This document shows positions 1,168-57,827 of a stretch of 64,000 bases of DNA, one piece after another. The notes under the pieces were generated by a model. That model ran no database searches, was not told the DNA's origin, and worked only from the letters and a program-made list of their open reading frames with translations. This DNA is from Octopus vulgaris (taxonomy: Eukaryota), in NCBI GenBank assembly GCA_951406725.2, contig OX597816.1, forward strand, positions 51,956,001 through 52,020,000. The letters run 5' to 3'. Position numbers and translations under genes: made by a program. How positions within the stretch are numbered: position 1 is the first letter of the stretch; the number at the start of each line of letters is the position of its first letter.

Positions 1168-1421
1168 TTTTATTGTTTTATTGTTTTATTTGCTTCAGTC
1201 ATATGACTATGGCCATGCTGATATCGTTTTATTGTTTTATTGTTTTATTTGCTTCAGTCATATGACTATGGCCATGCTGGAGCACCGTCTTTAGTCAAGC
1301 AAATCGACCACAGGACTTAGTCTTTGTAAGCCTAGCACTTATTCTATCGGTTTCTTTTGCTGAACCTGCATTCAAAGAAATACGATAAAGTGTTGTTCAC
1401 AGCTTTCTGAAGAGCAATATT
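923..1421. repeat. Near-perfect inverted duplication (~200 bp arms, SINE 3' end plus unique flank) centred on (TA)n
   Basis: 923-1120 is the reverse complement of ~1221-1421 with about 2 mismatches; an extra partial copy lies at 1162-1220. Confidence 0.9.
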
Positions 1422-1727
1422 ATATATATATATATATAATTTCAACAATTGAGGGTAAAATTAATTAATTATTAATCAATTTCACCAAGTGTTCAGTATG
1501 CAAAGGGACCATTTAAGGCGAATTCAAATTATTACATTATATAAAAGGGCTTAGTAAAATAAATTACTTTGCCGCATACTGAACTCATTAGAAATAGCAG
1601 CTAAAAAACTTTTTTTAAAGCTATTTCTAATACTTAAAGAAAATCTCTCTCATATATAGTGTTTGCTTAATTCAACTCACAAAAGTTTGGGGGTAAGGAC
1701 ATCAAAAAATCAAATGCTAAGGTTATT

Positions 1728-1779
1728 TGAGAACGTACGTTTCAAGATTAGTCATAACAACACTTCTATCATCAGCTCA
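1728..1779 (-). ncRNA. Minimal type-I hammerhead ribozyme (545-bp family)
   Basis: Minus strand: UGAG-CUGAUGA-stem II-GAAA-CGUACG-UU-CUCA; canonical core, palindromic stem III. Confidence 0.75.
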
Positions 1780-2128
1780 GAAACTCCTTGGTTTGGATTT
1801 GGAAACACTGAAAGTAAGAACATACCCTTTCGAAGATCCGCTCGTAACTAACAGTGCCAACAAACCCAAATAAGCAAGCGAAGAATTTCTGTTCTCCCCT
1901 TTCCACCAGCGTGGGTTAAAATCATCAAACACTATGCTTATTTCGGTAAAATCCGAAGCATTAATTAGAGGGAGATTAATTATAATTTCAACAATTGAGG
2001 GTAAAATTAATTAATTATTAATCAATTTCACCAAGTGTTCAGTATGCAAAGGGACCATTTAAGGCGAATTCAAATTATTACATTATATAAAAGGGCTTAG
2101 TAAAATAAAATCCAAACCAAGGAGTTTC

Positions 2129-2180
2129 TGAGCTGATGATAGAAGTGTTGTTATGACTAATCTTGAAACGTACGTTCTCA
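2129..2180 (+). ncRNA. Minimal type-I hammerhead ribozyme (545-bp family)
   Basis: TGAG CTGATGA TAGAAGTGTTGTTATGACTAATCTT GAAA CGTACG TT CTCA. Confidence 0.75.
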
Positions 2181-2672
2181 AATAACCTTAGCATTTGATT
2201 TTTTGATGTCCTTACCCCCAAACTTTTGTGAGTTGAATTAAGCAAACACTATATATGAGAGAGATTTTCTTTAAGTATTAGAAATAGCTTTAAAAAAGTT
2301 TTTTAGCTGCTATTTCTAATGAGTTCAGTATGCGGCAAAGTAATTTATTTTACTAAGCCCTTTTATATAATGTAATAATTTGAATTCGCCTTAAATGGTC
2401 CCTTTGCATACTGAACACTTGGTGAAATTGATTAATAATTAATTAATTTTACCCTCAATTGTTGAAATTATAATTAATCTCCCTCTAATTAATGCTTCGG
2501 ATTTTACCGAAATAAGCATAGTGTTTGATGATTTTAACCCACGCTGGTGGAAAGGGAGAACAGAAATTCTTCGCTTGCTTATTTGGGTTTGTTGGCACTG
2601 TTAGTTACGAGCGGATCTTCGAAAGGGTATGTTCTTACTTTCAGTGTTTCCAAATCCAAACCAAGGAGTTTC

Positions 2673-2724
2673 TGAGCTGATGATAGAAGTGTTGTTATGA
2701 CTAATCTTGAAACGTACGTTCTCA
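2673..2724 (+). ncRNA. Minimal type-I hammerhead ribozyme (545-bp family)
   Basis: Identical to 2129-2180, 544 nt downstream on the same strand. Confidence 0.75.
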
Positions 2725-2906
2725 AATAACCTTAGCATTTGATTTTTTGATGTCCTTACCCCAAACTTTTGTGAGTTGAATTAAGCAAACACTATATATG
2801 AGAGAGATTTTCTTTAAGTATTAGAAATAGCTTTAAAAAAGTTTTTTAGCTGCTATTTCTAATGAGTTCAGTATGCGGCAAAGTAATTTATTTTACTAAG
2901 CCCTTT

Positions 2907-2954
<48 letters not shown>

Positions 2955-4047
2955 AAAAATGCTAGTTCTAAAATCTCTCTAAGAGATCAACGCTGTAGTT
3001 GTACTAACAAGTAATATTCGTAACAGTAAATCGAAAGGTTTTACTTCTATTTTTAACCCCAAGAAGACATCTCCTCTAGCTGGTTGATCATGCCCAGCTG
3101 CAATATATCGCATGCAGCTGTTACATGTGTGAATTACTTTGTAACATGTGTCATGTTTTCTCGAGTTATTTTGCCTATACAATCGCGAGCGTGCGTAGGC
3201 ACCTTTTGATTCCCCTACCCTTGATTCAATAGAACATCGAAAATGTCAGAACTTGTCAAAGGTAAGGCGGCATCCGCACTCGGTTGGTATTTATTACAGC
3301 ACTGTAGATTGATTTTACGTGAAATGAATATTCTTACTCCATAGTACAATTCATCGCTCTGTCCAGAAGTCAAACTCTTGACATTGTAATCCTGAGCTCA
3401 ACATTTTTGCAATAGACTACACGACTTTGTCAGAACCTTGAAGGCAGTATTTGCCATTTTTGTTCTTATTTAGCGACTAGCCAGTGGCGGTCGAACAAAT
3501 CAATGAGAAAGCACAATCGAGAAATAATCACCCAATCTGTTTCAGGCCAGATGTTCTTCAGTTTATCAGATTATATTCCCTTAATAAATAGAATGCAAAA
3601 TTTATTTATCTACTCCTATCCTCATCCCACATGCATACGCCATGAAACATTAGAGCAGTCAATAATGGAGTGGACGTAGAATTAGGAGATGTTAGTACCG
3701 AAAATATAACACAAGAGAATTGTCTTGGTTAATAAAGACTTCTTTTCCACTGATACACAATTTGGAGGCGAAACCTATTTTAGTTACTCGATAATGTTAT
3801 TCAGCATCAACACAAGCCCAATATTGGATATTGCAAAACATATTGATCCGGTAGACAGCGTCCTTTTTTAAGAATATAATTGTTACAACCTTCATAGTAT
3901 GAATAATTATGAACAAATATTTACACTCCATCAAGTCGATGAATTGGGGGAGTCATTAGAGTGTTAGACAACGCTGTGGCGCATCAAGTGTTCTCAGAAA
4001 CCGGGGTCAAAAATAAATTTATCGATAAAATTGTTTTACACTTCTTT

Positions 4048-4295
4048 CCGCAGGCATATGGCGTAGTGATTAAGAGCGCCGGCTACTAACCCCAAGATTC
4101 CGGGTTCGATTCCAAGCAGTGACCTGAACAATAATAATAATAATAATAACTTCGAAAAATGCCTTAAGAATGAGAACGCAGGTTTGAAATTTCCCCAAGA
4201 CACCTGAAGAAGGCTGGAGGGTATATCAGCCGAAACTTTGTGTTAACAACAAACAAAATGAGGACAAATATCCGTCGAATGTAAATAATTTAAAT
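4048..4295 (+). mobile_element. tRNA-derived SINE with a hammerhead-containing tail
   Basis: A box TGGCGTAGTG, B box GGTTCGATTCC, (AAT)n, then an HHR motif; 19-bp TSD AATTGTTTTACACT(T/C)CTTT at 4029-4047 and 4296-4314. Confidence 0.85.
4199..4244 (+). ncRNA. Minimal hammerhead motif in SINE tail
   Basis: GACAC CTGAAGA A GGCTG-loop-CAGCC GAAA CTTT GTGTT (the 18.6 kb copy reads GAAACGTT). Confidence 0.65.
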
Positions 4296-5557
4296 AATTG
4301 TTTTACACTCCTTTATAACTGATTCCGGAGATGGGAAGACCGCTCTCTTAATTCCGTTTCTTTGCCACATCTTTGTAATCCGAGTTGCATTCCCACTTCT
4401 TCTCATTAGTATTCAAGTCTAAGCCCCACCTAAGTCTTATTAGCCTTTCATCGTTTCGGGAATCGATAAAATAAAATATTAGGCAAGCACTGGCGTCAAT
4501 AGTATCGACTCCTTGTTCCGCATCTCCCACAAATTGTTGACCTTCTGCCTGTTTTAGGAAACAATACCTACCTTCTTCGATTTTTATCCGTTTTCTTCAC
4601 GCATACTACATACTGCGTGTGTGAAGGACAAAAAAAAAACGAGAATGCAAGAAAGTAGATGACAATGGAAGTTCATTAACAAAGTTATCTAAATTAACTA
4701 ATTGAATTCTAAATTCTACAATGAAATACTAATCTTCGTTTTACATTATTTTTGTCTTTTATTTTGAAGACGTCTTTGGTGTCATAACATCATACGTGAC
4801 GTATCGCTACTTGAATGAAATAACCATTTTCTTTCAAATTATAATAATAGTGTTGGCAATATTCATGCATGACGTATTTGCTGCTCGATGAGACCTACTA
4901 ATCTACCATCTGTAATTTAGCAAGTCGACATTAACTTATTCACGCTACATATCTCCAATTTGATTCGGCAATTGTAATGACCAAATCAATTACACAAATA
5001 GTAATCTTTGATAAAAGTCAAGGGCGCGCAATCAAGAACAAAGAAGCTTAAAGCAGCATTTCATTCACATATACTTAGAGGCAAATCAGATCTAATCAGT
5101 CACTTTTATTGTAACAGGCAGGTCAAAAGAAGAAAGAAGAGAGGTTCAGCGCATGATATTAGCTTATCATTATGCGTTTGTCTATTATATACTATTAAGT
5201 TATTCTTAAGACTTGTAATCGCATTACGAAAACCATGTCTCTCTCACCTCTTGCTCCTGTGAAAATAATGCGCACTTTATGATTGCTTTCTGACACCGGA
5301 GAGTTTACACATCTTCCACAATTTGATTGATAACCTAGCTTCTTTCATAATGTTGCTTAATGTTTCTATGATAAATGTATACGAAAGTATGTGGAGAACA
5401 GGGCAATTGGATTGCAAAGCTGGCTCATCCTTATGATAATACATGGGGCTCTTATGATACTCTCTTGAACTTCAAACTTAGAAAATTATAATGCAGGAAA
5501 TTTAAAGACATCATAACTAACAAATCTTCATTCCCACCCTCTGACTCCTTTAACTAT

Positions 5558-7541: not shown

Positions 7542-8126
7542 CTTAAGGCGGCGAGCTGGCAGAATCGTTAGCACGCCGGGCGAAATGCGTAGCCGTATTT
7601 CGTCTGCCGTTACGCTCTGAGTTCAAATTCCGCCGAGGTCGACTTTGCCTTTCATCCTCTCGGGGGTCGATAAATTAAGTACCAGTTACGCACTGGAGTC
7701 GATGTAATCGACTTAATCCGTTTGTCTGTCCTTGTTTGTCCCCTCTGTGTTTGGCCCATTGTTGGTAGTAAAGAAATAGGTATTTCGTTTGTCGCTACGT
7801 TCTGAGTTCAATTTCCGTCGAAGTCGACTTTGCCTTTCATCCTTTCTGGGTCGATAAATTAAGTACCAGTTACGCACTGGGGTCGATATAACCGACTTAA
7901 TCCGTTTGTCTGTCCTTGTTTGTCCTCTCTGTGTTTAGCCCCTTGTGGGTAGTAAAGAAATAGGTATTTCGTCTGTAGCTATGTTCTGAGTTCAATTTCC
8001 ACCGAAGTCGACTTTGCCTTTCATCGTTTCTGGGTCGATAAATTAAGTAACAGTTGCGTACAGGGTACGATCGAATCGACTGGCCCCCTCCCCGAAAATT
8101 TCGGGCTTTATGCCTAGAGTAGAAAA
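7542..8126 (+). mobile_element. tRNA-derived SINE family B with internal triplication (~185 bp unit)
   Basis: GGCGGCGAGCTGGCAGAATCGTTAG head; GCCTTTCATCCTTTCGGGGTCGATAAATTAAGTACC-like central domain three times; TSD TAATATATTCACTA at 7528-7541 and 8127-8140. Confidence 0.85.
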
Positions 8127-18514: not shown

Positions 18515-18690
18515 AGTTCTATATTTAAGAGATGAGGAATTATGTACATTACTTACATTATTGACATTCGACGAATATTTGTACTCATCTTGTTGTTAAG
18601 ACAACGTTTCGGCTGATATACCCTCCAGCCTTCTTCAGGTGTCTTGGGGAAATTTCGAACCTGGGTTCTCATTCCTAAGGTATTTTTTAA

Positions 18691-18763
<73 letters not shown>

Positions 18764-18923
18764 ACATCGAAAAATACTTTAGGAATGAGAACCTAGGTTC
18801 GAAATTTCCCCAAGACACCTGAAGAAGGCTGGAGGATATATCAGCCGAAACGCTGTGTTAACAACAAATAAGATGAGGAAAAATATCCGTCGAATGTAAA
18901 TAATGTAAATAATTTAAATAATG
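18515..18923. mobile_element. Inverted (hairpin) insertion of the HHR-SINE tail
   Basis: Minus arm 18515-18695 and plus arm ~18762-18923 around (GTT)n(ATT)n; HHR motifs at 18598-18645 (-) and 18814-18859 (+); TSD TATCTGAAATTAC at 18502-18514 and 18924-18936. Confidence 0.85.
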
Positions 18924-26036: not shown

Positions 26037-26101
<65 letters not shown>

Positions 26102-26238
26102 TCAATAAATGGTGGGGTTGTGTTGACCGCACGTGGAGAAATGATAAGTAAGGAAAATTTTTTTTTTAAATGCAGAATGCTCAAATGAAAGAAAATTTTA
26201 ATAAAATGAGAAATTGATAAAATATATAAATATATATT

Positions 26239-26279
26239 TATTCAACCGGTTTTCGTCATTGTATGACTTGTCAAGAATA
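26239..26279 (-). ncRNA. Variant minimal hammerhead in the 3' pLTR (U3-A8 core)
   Basis: UAUUC UUGACAA GUCAU-ACA-AUGAC GAAAA CCGG UU GAAUA. Confidence 0.55.
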
Positions 26280-26907
26280 TTTATGTTTTAAAAAGTTTTT
26301 TTAAAAATTAGAAAGGGGAAAAAAAGAAAATTGCATTGTTTTTTGTAAAAGAATAATGATAAAAATGTACAAAAATTAAAAAATAAGTTCTCCGATACAT
26401 TGTGAGTTCGTTGTGTATCTTGAGTTTTATAGTTGTTTACGAAAAAATTACCTTGAGGTGTTAAGATCCAAAGGGATTAAGAGCATGTGTTGTGTTGTTA
26501 AATTCAGCATGTTTGCAGGACAGGAAGTAGTAGTAATTGTGGTCCTGGTTCTTCAGTTCCTGTGTTGTGAGTAAGGGGAGACAACTCTTTTGAGTTCTTC
26601 AATAAAACCCAAATTATAAAATTAATATTTTAGCTTCATTTGTGTTATCTTTTTTATATAATTGCTTGTTAACTTAACTTTCAGATTTTAACACTTTATT
26701 TATATTATTTTCTAATTATATAAATCTGCATAGACAATTGCATTTCAAATTGTCATATCATTTATAATAAAAATGATAGTAATAACAACAATAGTAAAAA
26801 TGATACTTAAAGAATATAAGTTTTAGCTTGAAGTGATGAATGCATGGTATCTTTATATATTTGTGTTAGTCCATCCATGAAGAGTGAGGTAGAGAAAGGA
26901 AGTTTGA

Positions 26908-27312
26908 TCAACGAGGAGTTTGCATATTAAGTTGTGTTTGGAATTTTTCAATAAAGAGATTCTCCTTGTTAATTCTCTCCTGTGTGGTGATCCCGTCTTT
27001 ACATTGGTAGAAGGGGAATATATAGAATTTGGGGTTTAAGTCTTTAGCACATGAGTCTAAGTGGTCACTCAGTGGAATTTGTCGGTATTCCGGGAGATTT
27101 ATTTGTTCTTTATGCACCGTTACTCGTTTACGTAACGGGAGACTCGTTTGTCCAACATAATTATGTTGGCAACCAGCGCATGTGAGAACGTAGATAAGGT
27201 TCTCGGAGGAACAGGAGAAGTTAGTCTTGATTTTAAACTTCGTACCTTGTTTGAAGGTAAATTCAGAGCCTTCAAGTAGAAAGGGGCAGGTACCACAGTT
27301 TGAGCGTTCACC
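26908..27312 (-). pseudogene. PLE GIY-YIG endonuclease domain
   Basis: Manual translation: ERSNCGTCPFLLEG..CSSENLIYVLTCAGCQHNYVGQTSLPLRKRVTVHKEQI..HL..RINKENLFI..LN; one-base frameshift from the RT ORF near 27313. Confidence 0.9.
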
Positions 27313-28108
27313 TTTTTCCTACTGTTGGGGGTGGATGTGGTGTGTGAAGTTTGGCATTTGTCAAGAGTTTTTTTAAAGATTTGTGTTGCCTTTTGCATTT
27401 GAGGATTTTGTGTGTATTTATAATGTTTTTCATTTTTGGGTCTGTTGACAGTAGACTGAGGTTTTGTATGATTGTGGTGTATGCTTCGATATTTTTGGGG
27501 TTGTGGGTGGAAATGTATGGAAGTATTTTGAGGTTGTGTGTGGTGTTAGGTTGGGTGGTTTTCAGTGTAGTGTTGTCTAGTTCTTTGGCGCGTTTTATTC
27601 CATACTCTATAAGGGTGGAGAGATATTGACGTTGTAATAGTGTTTTTTTGAGGTCTTGAAGGCGTATTTCTCGTGTTTTTGGATCCGAGACAATGGTGCA
27701 TACCCTTTTAGCTAAATTGAAAGGGATATTTGTCTTGGTGTGTTTTGGGTGGCATGAACTAAAGAGGAGGTATTGTTGTGAGTCTGTAGGTTTGTGGTAG
27801 ATGTCTGTTATGATTTCGTTCTTAGGTGTTTTTATAATTAGGAGATCAAGGAATGGGAGATGATGTTTGCTTAATTCCATAGTGAATTGGATGTTGGGAT
27901 GTATGTTGTTTAGTATGGTTTTGAATTCCAGGAGTTTTTCATAAGGTTCTTTCCATATGATGAAACAATCATCTAAATACCTTTTCCAGTTTTCAATTAG
28001 GTAGGTGTGGAAAACATGTCCAAATTTCTGGCTTGATATTTCATAGAGTGACAGTTCGAAGTAACCCATTATGAGGTTCGCAAGGACTGGTGCAGCCTTG
28101 GTACCCAT
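27308..28108 (-). pseudogene. PLE reverse transcriptase, C-terminal part
   Basis: MGT..AP..ANL.M, WKRYLDD, LPFLD, YHKPTD, SCHP motifs. Confidence 0.93.
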
Positions 28109-29217
28109 CGCAATGCCACATTTTTGACGGTAGTGTGTGTCGTCGAAGAGAAAAAATTGTTTGTCAGAATGAACTTGAGAGATTCTGTAATAAAAGACTT
28201 GTTAATGCGGTCAGGGAATGTCTCTGGGTGTTTTTCTAGCCAGAAGTCAATTGCCTCTATACCATACTCATGTGGAATGTTGGTGTAGAGGTTGATGACA
28301 TCAAAGGATACCAGGAGTGCCTCCTCGTTAACTGTTTTCGGGAGGTGTTTGAGCATGTCCAGATCATCCCTAATGAAACTTTTGATGTGGGTAAGGAAAG
28401 GTTTCAAAAGGATGTCTAGGAAGTTACTCAGGCGGTGTGTTTCACAGGAGGTACCAGCCACGATGGGCCTTAGTTTTAGGTCCTCTGGTGCTTTGATGTT
28501 GATGTGGATGTCAGTGGAGAGTTTGCAGGCTTCGGTGATGTATTTGTTTTTATGGATTTTAGGAAGGCCATAAAAAAGGCTGGGCTTGCATTTGAAAATG
28601 GTGATATAATCCCTTTCTTTTTCTGTGAGTCCCTGACCGTGTTGGCGTATGAGTGTGGTAAGGTTTCTGATTGTTTTTTGCTGTTTGTAGTTGTTAATAA
28701 CCTCATAGAAAATGTTATTGTTAAGCATGGAAAACACTAGGTGTTTATAAAATTCCGTGTCCATAAGGACCACAGCACTCCCTTTGTCCGCTTCTTTGAT
28801 GGTGAGGTTTTTATCCAGTTGTATGTCACGTAGGTTTTCCCATTCTTCCTTACTGAAATTGGATTTTACCTTGGTTTTGCTTGGGGTAAAGGGGAGACTC
28901 TGGATGTGTTTGCAGAAATCGTCCAGTGTTTTATTTCTCCCTTTTGGTGGTAGGAAGTTGCTTTTATTTCTGATCAATGAATCGTCCCCATTGTTGATAT
29001 CTGTCAAAGCTTCTGTTAGGCGAAGTTTTCTGCAGAATTCAGAAACGTCATCCTTGACCTCCGGGGGGTTTGGTGTTCTTGGGGTGGGTGTGAATTTCAA
29101 ACCTCTTGCTAGGATGTTGATTTGGGTTGGTGTCAGTGTCTTGCTGGAGAGGTTTATAATTTTTGTTTTCTTATTTTGGGTCTGTGTTAGCGGTGGTGTT
29201 TGTATTTTCCCCTCTGT
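28069..29217 (-). pseudogene. PLE reverse transcriptase, N-terminal part
   Basis: IINLS..GLKFTPTP, ADKG, YGLPKIHK, LRPIV, SFDV.NLYTNIP motifs; frame open from 29217; frameshift near 28130. Confidence 0.93.
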
Positions 29218-29760
29218 CTAAAAAATGGTTGTTGAGGTAAGGGGTGTATTCTTTGTTAAAGTTCTGGTTGTATGTGTAGGAGTGTTTTTGGGTGGGGAGG
29301 TTGGAGGGGGGTAGGTAGTTGTCGTTTTTGTGTTGGTATGGGATGCGATGGTGTAAGGATTTGTGAGAAATGCGATGGGTTTGTGGGTGTGTGTCTGGTA
29401 GATTGTATGGGGGGATGTAGGGGGTATGTAGTTGTGGTGATTGGGTTCGTGTGGGATGTGAGGGTTTGGAGATCTGTAGGAGATGTGGTAGGAATGTGGT
29501 TGTAGGATGGGTGGACTATAGGGGGTTCGTTGGGTGGGTATTATATGTATCGGTGTGGGTAGGATGCCTTGTTTGTTATTAGTGTGAGGGAGGGGAGCCT
29601 TGAGGGGGGATAATTTCTAGTGTATGGGAGGTTCTTGAAGGTTCTAATCGGTGGGGGAGGGGTGTTAGAGTGATTGGAAAACCAGGTTTTGTGGTGGGTC
29701 TTGTTTGAGATGTTTCGGGGGGAAAAGGTTTTTTATATGGTTGGGGGAGGTTGTGTCCTG

Positions 29761-30675
29761 TTAGGAGGGGGTTTGGAGAGTATGTGTATTTGAGGTGCGG
29801 TTTGGAATGGTGTTTATGGGTGCAGTGGAAGTCTGTGTTGTGGGTACTTTTATGAATGGGTTTTGGGATTTATGGTTTAATATGAATTGTGTTTCATAGT
29901 TGAGGAAGAAATCTTTGTTGTTTTCCCAGCGTTTAAGGGAGGTTCGTTCTTCCTTTTCACATTCATCTTTCCATAGTTTAATAACAAGTTCGAGGGGCTG
30001 TTCGTTGGTGTGTGAGGTTAGTTCTAGAAGTATCTCATCGTCTATTTTTGTGTATTTTTGTTCGTGGTTTTGTGCTCTGAGTTTTAGAAGTTCTACTTCG
30101 GTTTTCATTTTTTCCAATGTTAGTTTTTCTCTTAGGGAGCGTTGTTTTTCAGGTTCGTCTGGGATGTGTTTGATTTGGAATTTTCGGGGTAGTATGATAG
30201 GGGAGGAGTTTAACCATTTGTCGTAAATTTCAGCTTCGTTTTGGTTTTTGAGCATGTTCCAGAAGAGAAGTTTTCTGTTGTGTAGTTTCTTAGTCCAAGT
30301 AGTGATGATCTGGTTTTTAATGCGTTGTGCTGGGGTTGAAGTGTGTTCCTTCTGTGTGTTGAGTGGTGTCTGAGGTCTCTTTGGCGTTGAATTGGTAAGT
30401 AGAGTTTTCAGTGTATTGTTGATTTCATTTAGGTTTACATCTATCTTATCCGAAAGTAGAGTTTTCAGTGTAGTGTTGATTTCGTTTAGGTTTACATCAA
30501 TTTTATCCGAAAGTTGTTGATGATGGTTGTTTTCTGAGTTGTCCCGGGATTGATGGAGAAGTTCGTCAATTTTTTTGGAGAATGTAAGTAGATGTGTATT
30601 GAGTACTTTGAGTTCTTTTAGAATGGTCTTATTGGTGACTGTCTCTGTAAGAGTGCTCTTGTTTTTCGGAGGCAT
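29761..30675 (-). CDS. Upstream ORF1 of the PLE (304 aa, predicted coiled-coil, function unknown)
   Basis: ATG 28 nt after the 5' pLTR; K/E/L-rich; duplicated LSDKIDVNLNEIN.TLKTL; followed by a frame-broken Pro/Thr-rich stretch to ~29220. Confidence 0.7.
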   Translation of the reverse strand: MPPKNKSTLTETVTNKTILKELKVLNTHLLTFSKKIDELLHQSRDNSENNHHQQLSDKIDVNLNEINTTLKTLLSDKIDVNLNEINNTLKTLLTNSTPKRPQTPLNTQKEHTSTPAQRIKNQIITTWTKKLHNRKLLFWNMLKNQNEAEIYDKWLNSSPIILPRKFQIKHIPDEPEKQRSLREKLTLEKMKTEVELLKLRAQNHEQKYTKIDDEILLELTSHTNEQPLELVIKLWKDECEKEERTSLKRWENNKDFFLNYETQFILNHKSQNPFIKVPTTQTSTAPINTIPNRTSNTHTLQTPS

Positions 30676-30843
30676 TCTGAATCACACGTGTGGTAGAGGG
30701 TACAGATCAATAAATGTTGGGGTTGTGTTGACCGCACGTGGAGAAATGATAAGTAAGGAAAAATTTTTTTTTAAATGCAGAATGCTCAAATGAAAGAAAA
30801 TTTTAATAAAATGAGAAATTGATAAAATATATAAATATATATT

Positions 30844-30884
30844 TATTCAACCGGTTTTCGTCATTGTATGACTTGTCAAGAATA
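30844..30884 (-). ncRNA. Variant minimal hammerhead in the 5' pLTR (U3-A8 core)
   Basis: Identical to 26239-26279. Confidence 0.55.
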
Positions 30885-31014
30885 TTTATGTTTTAAAAAG
30901 TTTTTTTAAAAATTAGAAAGGGGAAAAAAGAAAATTGCATTGTTTTTTGTAAAAGAATAATGATAAAAATGTACAAAAATTAAAAAATAAGTTCTCCGAA
31001 AAATTTTTCCTTAC

Positions 31015-37816: not shown

Positions 37817-37819
<3 letters not shown>

Positions 37820-37890
37820 GCGGAGGCCTACCACACGCCGATGATAGGCAATACACCTTGAAACCATGGTCCGTGTGTGGTTTCCGCTTC
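37817..37890 (+). ncRNA. Type-I hammerhead, U4C variant, long stem I
   Basis: GAAGCGGA..CACACG CCGATGA TAGG-CAATACA-CCTT GAAA CCATGG TC CGTGTG..TCCGCTTC; GUC site at 37869-37871. Confidence 0.75.
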
Positions 37891-38175
37891 ATCGGGAAAT
37901 TACCTCCCTTTGCAGGTTTAGGGCACCGTGACGGTGTCGAGCCTTTCTGGTGACGTCGATGTTCGCCTGGGGCTAAATGCAACAGTAACACCCCCACCAC
38001 CCTGCCCTGTCCCTAGCCATATTCAGATGGCTTTAGTCCCTTATGTTATCGAGCAGTTACTGTCTATATCCCTTTTAGAGAATTATTATTGCTTTCGAAC
38101 AGATTCTCGAAATCAGCAAATGTATTTTGCTTGAAAATCTATATAAGAAATCCTGCACAGTGAGAATTCGTCGAG

Positions 38176-38249
38176 GAAGCGGAGGCCTACCACACGCCGA
38201 TGATAGGCAATACACCTTGAAACCATGGTCCGTGTGTGGTTTCCGCTTC
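38176..38249 (+). ncRNA. Type-I hammerhead, U4C variant (copy 2)
   Basis: Identical to copy 1. Confidence 0.75.
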
Positions 38250-38534
38250 ATCGGGGAATTACCTCCCTTTGCAGGTTTAGGGCACCGTGACGGTGTCGAG
38301 CCTTTCTGGTGACGTCGATGTTCGCCTGGGGCTAAATGCAACAGTAACACCCCCACCACCCTGCCCTGTCCCTAGCCATATTCAGATGGCTTTAGTCCCT
38401 TATGTTATCGAGCAGTTACTGTCTATATCCCTTTTAGAGAATTATTATTGCTTTCGAACAGATTTTCGAAATCAGCAAATGTATTTTGCTTGAAAATCTA
38501 TATAAGAAATCCTGCACAGTGAGAATTCGTCGAG

Positions 38535-38608
38535 GAAGCGGAGGCCTACCACACGCCGATGATAGGCAATACACCTTGAAACCATGGTCCGTGTGTGGTT
38601 TCCGCTTC
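38535..38608 (+). ncRNA. Type-I hammerhead, U4C variant (copy 3)
   Basis: Identical to copy 1. Confidence 0.75.
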
Positions 38609-38809
38609 ATCGGGGAATTACCTCCCTTTGCAGGTTTAGGGCACCGTGACGGTGTCGAGCCTTTCTGGTGACGTCGATGTTCGCCTGGGGCTAAATGCAA
38701 CAGTAACACCCCCACCACCCTGCCCTGTCCCTAGCCATATTCAGATGGCTTTAGTCCCTTATGTTATCGAGCAGTTACTGTCTATATCCCTTTTAGAGAA
38801 TTATTATTG

Positions 38810-38846
<37 letters not shown>

Positions 38847-56882: not shown

Positions 56883-57068
56883 ACAGTTCTATATTTAAGA
56901 GATGAGGAATTATGTACATTATTTACATTATCTACATTTTTACATTATTTACATTCGACGGATATAAAGAAGAATGCTGGAGGATATATCAGCTGAAAAG
57001 TTGTGTTAACAACAAACAAGATGAGGACAAATATCCGCCGAATGTAAATAATGTAAATAATGTAAATT
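56883..57068. mobile_element. Second fold-back copy of the HHR-SINE tail
   Basis: Starts with the same terminus ACAGTTCTATATTTAAGAGATGAGGAATT as the 18.5 kb copy, then inverts into the plus-strand tail with a degenerate HHR. Confidence 0.8.
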
Positions 57069-57129: not shown

Positions 57130-57355
57130 TTATCTTTATCTTTCATTTGTTTCAGCCTATGGACTGCGGCCAAGCTGGGGCATCGCCTTGAATGGCTCAG
57201 TCAAGCGAATCGACCCAAGTGTATATTTTTCTAAGTCGTATATAAGTGTATATTTTTCTATCAAGCTTTGCTCAACTGTGAAGTTACAGTGATCTACAGC
57301 TATCAAGTAGTGTGTTGAAAACAAATACAAAGACACAAGACACACACATACAAAA
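57130..57355 (-). mobile_element. Diverged SINE family A 3' part
   Basis: TTGTTTCAG..GACTGCGGCCAAGCTGGGGCATCGCC. Confidence 0.6.
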
Positions 57356-57381
57356 ATGCACACTCCCACCCATACATGTAC

Positions 57382-57447
<66 letters not shown>

Positions 57448-57454
57448 GAGGGGA

Positions 57455-57827
57455 ATTAAAGCATTCGAGCTTTGGTGTCGGAGAAGACTTTTGCAGATTC
57501 CATGGACAGCGAGGCTTACCAATGGAGAAGTTCGTAAGCAGATAAGGCCGAAAATGTCGCTAGAAGCTGGGATCACCAAGCGTAGATTGGCATATTTCGA
57601 TCATATTATGCGGAGAGAATCCCTGAAGAAGGACATCATGCTCGGAATGGTGAGTGGCAAGAGAGGAAGAGGCCGACCAAGAACCCGCTGGCTTGACACC
57701 ATCTGGAGTGATACCGGAATGGTCATGGCCAGTCTGAAGGAAGCGGCCCATGATAGAACTGGCTGGAAGACACTGATCCAAAGAGTGACCGAGAGTCGAC
57801 TTCGACTGAGCGGTTAGAGAGAGAGAT
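57455..57827 (+). mobile_element. 5'-truncated RTE (BovB-like) LINE
   Basis: Open frame IKAFELWCRRRLLQIPWTAR..LAYFDHIMRR..IMLGMVSGKRGRGRPRTRWLD; (GA)n tail; TSD ACGAGGGGA at 57446-57454 and 57828-57836. Confidence 0.92.

Follow-up and report, generated by a model that had tools for sequence, protein, structure and literature searches.

A very recent insertion of a non-coding hammerhead repeat in Octopus vulgaris, likely a non-LTR retrozyme moved by Penelope-like enzymes

How does a short non-coding repeat carrying hammerhead ribozyme motifs come to lie in a genome as two back-to-back arms, each longer than one unit and each ending in a run of TA dinucleotides? The question is raised by positions 1435-2914 of the 64-kb stretch of Octopus vulgaris DNA analysed here (hereafter the window), for which a first-pass annotation proposed that a circular or multimeric template had been copied, with a fold-back, to give a young retrozyme or a non-autonomous Penelope-like element. 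We conclude, with good but not complete confidence, that the locus is a very recent insertion of a non-coding hammerhead repeat, likely a non-LTR retrozyme moved by Penelope-like enzymes.

The whole of 1435-2914 consists of copies of one non-coding 544-nt unit (543-546 nt when homopolymer indels are included) with a GC content of 33%. With phase 1 of the unit set at position 2108, the insertion is made up of the following parts.

2108-2914, plus strand: right arm, unit phases 1-544 and then 1-264 (807 nt, 1.48 units), a partial tandem
1435-2109, minus strand: left, inverted arm, unit phases 237-544 and then 1-365 (675 nt, 1.24 units)
2108-2109, unstranded: point at which the arms meet 5' to 5', sharing 2 nt
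1421-1438: left part of the (TA)n target
2913-2951: right part of the (TA)n target

The tandem and inverted array of a roughly 545-bp unit is therefore real, with a period of 544 and arms running from 2108 to 2914 on the plus strand and from 2109 to 1435 on the minus strand, as are the proposed (TA)n flanks at 1421-1438 and 2913-2951, into which the 3' ends of both arms run. The starting points of the arms differ by 236 nt in phase, and the left one extends 101 nt beyond the end of the right arm, which places the two 3' ends 101 nt apart; the right-arm end (phase 264) also lies 28 nt beyond the left-arm start phase (237), which may be chance. We make no claim that microhomology to TA primed the synthesis, since the unit is AT-rich and overlaps with TA at the arm ends by no more than 2-4 nt. 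The near-identity of the units was borne out as well, in that the copies at 1435-2914 differ by three single-base homopolymer indels and zero substitutions, the sole listed mismatch between copies sitting at the edge of a TA run, which suggests that the insertion is very young or was recently derived from one template. No credible ORF had been noticed, and the longest stop-to-stop frame on the closed unit is indeed 53 aa on the plus and 63 aa on the minus strand. An autonomous Penelope-like element was rejected, since no ORF for a reverse transcriptase (RT) plus GIY-YIG endonuclease was found in 1435-2914 and the unit closes into a ring without one. Further copies of the unit were absent elsewhere within the 64-kb window, in which no tRNA was found either. 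Tandem Repeats Finder, run with a period limit of 500, gave no report of the unit tandem (1.48 units).

The unit contains one hammerhead motif, and the three copies of the motif are identical.

2119-2189, plus strand: type I hammerhead motif 1, core at 2133-2139 and 2165-2167, predicted cut after 2176
2663-2733, plus strand: type I hammerhead motif 2, 544 nt downstream of motif 1, core from 2677, predicted cut after 2720
1719-1789, minus strand: type I hammerhead motif 3, in the inverted arm, core from 1775

These cores, at 2133 (+), 2677 (+) and 1775 (-), agree with the earlier reading of two same-strand hammerheads 544 nt apart and one on the opposite strand, and the GUU was correctly located, at 2174-2176. 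The core is complete and helices I-III are assignable in all three copies: in motif 1, helix III (2168-2175) comprises 2 bp and a palindromic tetraloop, helix I comprises 4 bp plus a distal 4 bp, and a U.U pair lies at the base of helix II. A type I descriptor run over the 64-kb window returned four matches, namely these three and one unrelated, while 60 local shuffles gave a mean of 0.23 matches, none of them with a palindromic helix III of at least 8 nt. Rfam gave no match in the window at the gathering score, and at E values up to 10 it yielded 12 weak unrelated matches and no hammerhead in 1300-3100. The description of the hammerhead as "canonical" consequently stands for the complete type I core, but not for the U.U at the base of helix II or for the Rfam search. 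Exact-pattern scans gave 0 matches in metagenome contigs and 0 in viral contigs. The free fold of the motif, at -9.4 kcal/mol, is not the active fold, which as drawn reaches -1.6 kcal/mol; the hammerhead filter applied in bioRxiv 10.64898/2026.07.22.740005 is a free energy below -5 kcal/mol, which the free fold would pass.

Cleavage at the two plus-strand motifs would release a unit-length RNA, and its predicted folding was compared with that of shuffled sequences.

2177-2720, plus strand: predicted 544-nt monomer between the two cut sites

Closed into a circle, the predicted monomer folds at -142 kcal/mol (z = -7.2) with 63% of its bases paired, versus z = -4.7 for the other strand, and no shuffle was as stable (40 dinucleotide shuffles per strand). 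Variants within the repeat family show no significant sparing of the helices of this circle: 5 of 33 break confident pairs versus 8.8 expected (p about 0.07). When the 807-nt arm is folded, an 8-bp helix forms between the two palindromes with a probability of 0.96-1.0. The forced double-hammerhead fold has -191.2 kcal/mol versus -185.3 for two monomeric folds and -208.7 for the inactive minimum, so that the dimeric active fold is better than the two monomeric ones by about 6 kcal/mol; the active folds lie 17.5 (dimer) and 23.4 kcal/mol (two monomers) above a predicted minimum that is itself inactive, and within the circle the active fold costs 8.3 kcal/mol over the minimum, all of these energies ignoring tertiary contacts. 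A preference for dimers, with slow cleavage, is predicted by these models. The suggestion that the palindromic stem III favours dimeric cleavage is accordingly backed, as a prediction, by computed folds and by analogy with the axolotl hammerhead HHR_Amex2. According to PMC7229834, the monomer of HHR_Amex2 cleaves 22% in an hour and the dimer much better. By description the two are alike in a 2-bp helix III with tetraloop and a U.U at the base of helix II; the axolotl unit measures about 350 nt versus 544 nt here, and the axolotl hammerhead is weak and dimer-dependent, whereas dimer dependence of the octopus hammerhead is predicted only.

The unit belongs to a repeat family that is widespread in public sequencing data. 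At least half of the sampled unit words are present in 20 of the 24 listed public runs, which cover 10 studies and 3 organism codes; none of the runs listed as containing them is recorded as RNA. Four runs (X1, X3, X7 and X9) were compared over 2200-2770, of which X1 and X9 are large DNA runs, and X3 and X7, only guessed to be RNA, serve as independent samples and not as evidence of expression. Matching contigs numbered 4,400 in X1 and 1,796 in X9, and summed word depth, which is not a copy number, ranged from 0.07 to 1.6 million across full bins in these two runs; contig counts and summed depth together point to a large family, probably of thousands of copies. More than half of the matching contigs are less than 99% alike, indicating that the family is far more diverse than the locus at 1435-2914. 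One of the differences within this locus, an extra G in the left arm, is a common family variant (33% in X1, 14% in X9). The unit closes on itself: X1 and X7 contain joints that lead back by 544-545 nt, and three X7 contigs tile the unit ring with 30-nt overlaps. The share of contigs continuing into unlike sequence was 0 in X1 and X9 and 0.05 and 0.28 in the two small runs. As the ring closes at 544-545 nt without an ORF, the unit is more than just a terminal repeat belonging to a coding element, and the earlier concern that it might only ever be attached to a coding Penelope-like element is refuted by these runs, although there may be a rare coding parent.

The variation in this family appears to be unevenly spread over the hammerhead. 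Among the 33 variant places listed, one falls in the 42 constrained hammerhead positions and four fall in the 18 free ones (Fisher p = 0.025, in a small and post hoc test); the sole variant at a constrained position is A15.1 in one X7 contig, and the free variants include N7, the only free base of the core. At 2697, every contig covering the position in the four runs has T, versus A in all three copies at the locus, which is either a private change in the single template behind both arms or a difference in an unsampled species. Other copies also end in TA repeats: among the 24 of 230 loose ends listed, copies continue into TA at 2472 in X3, precisely where the left arm ends, and at 2465 and 2455 in X7. 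The summed depth of contigs over 2260-2479 exceeds that over 2480-2699 by 2.6-fold in X1 and 3.1-fold in X9, a step that hints at a common 3' end near 2472, although contig depth cannot rank parts of the unit. One X9 contig switches strand at 2328/2364, and the exact 2108-2109 junction is absent among the joints listed in the four runs. A subfamily is represented by X7 contig 23 (on 2446-2742), in which 130 other letters replace 113 nt (2557-2669) to give a unit of about 561 nt; this may be the contig with the A15.1 variant, as it has the same depth.

To which known class does such a unit belong? Metazoan non-LTR retrozymes, as described in two papers (Cervera and de la Pena 2020, PMC7229834; Li, Clavereau and Pollet 2026, bioRxiv 10.64898/2026.07.22.740005), share with it a non-coding, head-to-tail tandem with one type I hammerhead per unit, two consecutive hammerheads (here 2133 and 2677, plus strand), a strongly self-paired predicted circle and a co-existing coding Penelope-like element. 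In the preprint, retrozymes are defined by two consecutive hammerhead-bearing units, span 51-972 bp and are linked to Penelope pseudo-LTRs, and one of nine Xenopus dimers cleaved in vitro; in PMC7229834, units range over about 150-450 bp and the retrozymes tested measured 170-400 nt. The octopus unit, at 544 nt, is longer than those tested, lies above the range of PMC7229834 and inside that of the preprint. As in these retrozymes, its GC content (33%) stays under 45-50% and there is no LTR-type unique centre. It differs from metazoan retrozymes in its inverted second arm and its TA target, neither of which is described for retrozymes in the portions available; inverted or TA-targeted retrozymes are likewise not described in the accessible parts of PMC12910113 and PMC5680766. 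Plant LTR retrozymes (PMC5680766) resemble the unit in being non-autonomous, with two same-strand hammerheads and a predicted monomer of several hundred nt, but they have type III hammerheads within LTRs, a unique centre and a 4-bp target duplication, and a plant LTR retrozyme was rejected as the identity of an element with a type I motif, no unique centre and TA runs only. No octopus or cephalopod hammerhead or retrozyme family appeared in the titles and abstract openings searched, which covered few of the subscription journals. At the level of sequence, the unit is likely to be a further member of the metazoan non-LTR retrozymes.

The mode of insertion is well matched by Penelope-like elements. 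As reported in PMC8557442, Penelope-like insertions show partial tandems, an adjacent inverted 5'-truncated copy and a preference for (TA)n, and the layout of 1435-2914 matches this signature in all three respects. A partial tandem, an inverted 5'-truncated copy, a microsatellite target, a hammerhead in the repeat and internal, variable 3' ends are common to the unit and to endonuclease-positive Penelope-like elements with their non-autonomous derivatives, MRC1 among them (PMC8557442; PMC11167929; PMC4209133). Unlike that group, the unit has no RT or GIY-YIG gene, its hammerhead is full-size and not minimal, and its 3' ends lie about 100 nt apart, as compared with a 30-40 nt tail, to which the 28-nt stretch between phases 237 and 264 may correspond only by chance. 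According to PMC11167929, a purified Penelope-like protein cuts AT-rich DNA, extends both strands and initiates inside the RNA, at sites that share no homology with the target; for the purified lizard element, hammerhead cleavage is dispensable for insertion.

The window itself contains an element coding for enzymes of this kind, a nearly complete Penelope-like element on the minus strand (26100-31014) whose broken frame holds RT, CxxC linker and GIY-YIG (Pfam: RT piece E = 0.0011, below the cut-off; GIY-YIG piece E = 0.00013, at the cut-off). It lies between TA runs and has about 290 nt of direct repeat at its termini, together with an inverted 5' piece of 17 nt. This element shows that Penelope-type machinery and this style of insertion exist in the genome. 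The unit has no sequence similarity to it (score 41 versus 40 for shuffles), so it does not stand out as the helper. Its terminal repeats contain, at 30879 and 26274 (minus strand), a hammerhead-like motif with the U3-A8 core covariation that has been reported for Schistosoma elements (PMC4209133); an extra A precedes the palindromic helix III in these motifs, which were missed by the descriptor and by Rfam.

Several other repeats in the window were noted. An inverted pair with 89-nt arms of 94% identity at 421-614, which ends at a TA run, shows a relationship to the terminal repeats of the coding Penelope-like element. Another family of short repeats, whose hammerhead-like motif is minimal, is found at 4140-4300 (core 4204, plus strand) beside tri-nucleotide microsatellites, and also at 18548-18715 (minus strand), 18746-18914 (plus strand) and 56969-57061, two of the copies forming an inverted pair. 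Scores of the unit against the 421-614 and the 4140-4300 repeats were within the shuffle range. A 359-nt tandem repeat (2.8 copies, 99% matches) at 37817-38811, followed by a TA-rich repeat and with no hammerhead by the descriptor, may be another young non-coding tandem insertion, and a 184-nt tandem repeat (2.5 copies, 91% matches) occupies 7595-8055. The plus-strand frame at 57311-57817, which had no Pfam match, we take to resemble the C-terminal end of a LINE-type reverse transcriptase, and the repeats flanking the insertion presumably resemble octopus repeats.

Immediately upstream of the insertion, the flank is itself duplicated, a feature missing from the first-pass annotation: 923-1421 is a near-perfect inverted duplication around (AT)23 with a 59-nt direct repeat, and it includes the following part.

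1162-1421, unstranded: inverted flank copy next to the left TA run, in which 923-1123 recurs over 201 nt with 2 mismatches, accompanied by a 59-nt partial repeat

The 201-nt inverted copy includes about 55 nt that are not common to six other local copies of a SINE-like repeat. Adjacency and similar identity suggest that 1162-1421 is possibly part of the same event; it may represent fold-back synthesis from the same break, or be independent.

How, then, may the two arms have been made? We propose that a tandem source copy would be transcribed, that its weak hammerheads would cut after GUU, mainly as dimers held by the 8-nt palindrome, to release a 544-nt monomer, and that a host ligase would close this monomer into a circle. 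A Penelope-like GIY-YIG endonuclease would then cut both strands of a (TA)n tract, the reverse transcriptase would start internally from each 3' end, near phase 264 on one side and near phase 365 on the other, and cDNAs of 1.48 and 1.24 turns would be copied from the RNA and joined at the 2-nt overlap to give back-to-back arms. Priming at both ends of the cut TA tract, together with joining of the cDNAs, would account for every boundary. The arms constrain the template: both exceed one unit and run uninterrupted through the predicted cut sites, and their 5' ends lie off these sites (68 nt before the cut in the plus arm, 167 nt after it in the minus arm), so that a cut linear monomer alone cannot have served as template. 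Arms that pass through intact cut sites for more than one unit fit a circular RNA or a multimer left uncut; we put the circle at slightly above an even chance and the uncut linear multimer at slightly below. A simple mirror fold-back of the forward arm is ruled out by arms that are not mirror images (236 nt out of phase, the left running 101 nt further), so this part of the first-pass annotation has to be given up, and priming from both target strands fits better. Its broader proposal, in which a template longer than one unit gave rise to a young retrozyme or to a non-autonomous element of the Penelope-like kind, is supported by the anatomy of the arms, the closure at 544-545 nt and the published insertion signature.

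The preferred reading has to be weighed against one in which the ribozyme plays little or no part. The unit could be a non-autonomous Penelope-type element, a detached pseudo-LTR with a weak or vestigial hammerhead; its movement would rely on linear multimer transcripts that stay uncut, and circles would not form. The active folds are not the predicted minimum, a U.U lies at the base of helix II, the arms pass through uncut sites, and the literature adds a lizard element inserted in vitro without cleavage (PMC11167929), eight of nine Xenopus dimers left uncleaved (10.64898/2026.07.22.740005) and 24 of 57 Xenopus retrozyme families that resemble annotated elements, nearly all of them Penelope-like. 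The constrained hammerhead positions, however, are nearly invariant across the family while the free ones vary, in axolotl a hammerhead of this architecture cleaves well when dimeric (PMC7229834), and the predicted circle is more strongly folded for the sense strand than for its counterpart, and we regard this explanation as unlikely.

Two explanations that dispense with insertion from RNA at this locus are rarer prospects still. The back-to-back layout could be an assembly or library artefact formed from a real high-copy repeat, as might be thought from a junction that is not among the joints listed in the four runs, from arms that differ by homopolymer indels only and from two more near-perfect inverted repeats no more than 1.1 kb upstream (421-614 and 923-1421); but the arms are not mirror images, an independent X9 contig switches strand nearby, older inverted pairs (81-89% identity) and the coding element share the style of layout, and the three hammerheads share a base absent from the four runs, an indication of a single source template, although this base could be fixed in an unsampled species. 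An artefact is accordingly judged very improbable. Marginally less probable again is an origin at the DNA level, in which recombination or break repair would have amplified and inverted a satellite or minisatellite and RNA would have played no part. The high summed depth, the adjoining DNA-level inverted duplication of the flank and the DNA route to tandem arrays discussed in 10.64898/2026.07.22.740005 would be expected of such a process, against which stand arms of merely 1.2-1.5 units, hammerhead-strand 3' ends that both lie at TA runs, other copies that end in the same zone and a conserved ribozyme core.

Returning to the insertion of a hammerhead repeat by Penelope-like enzymes, a fuller account can be offered tentatively, at somewhat worse than even chances: the locus may have captured a recent event in which a Penelope-like enzyme, starting from both cut strands of a TA microsatellite, copied a 544-nt RNA circle made by the ribozyme for more than one turn each and also produced a fold-back copy of the flank, and the large family may still be active, with internal starts favoured in two zones that lie about 100 nt from each other. 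The surprise is limited, because the element class is already known. In the accessible literature, mobilisation of animal retrozymes by Penelope-like elements has so far been argued from co-occurrence and sequence similarity rather than from the anatomy of insertions or from biochemistry. If the fuller account is true, the long-proposed partnership of retrozymes and Penelope-like elements becomes directly testable. An insertion that lacks substitutions, bears every part of the Penelope signature and stems from a family of high copy number provides defined start sites and a natural substrate for the existing in vitro Penelope assay.
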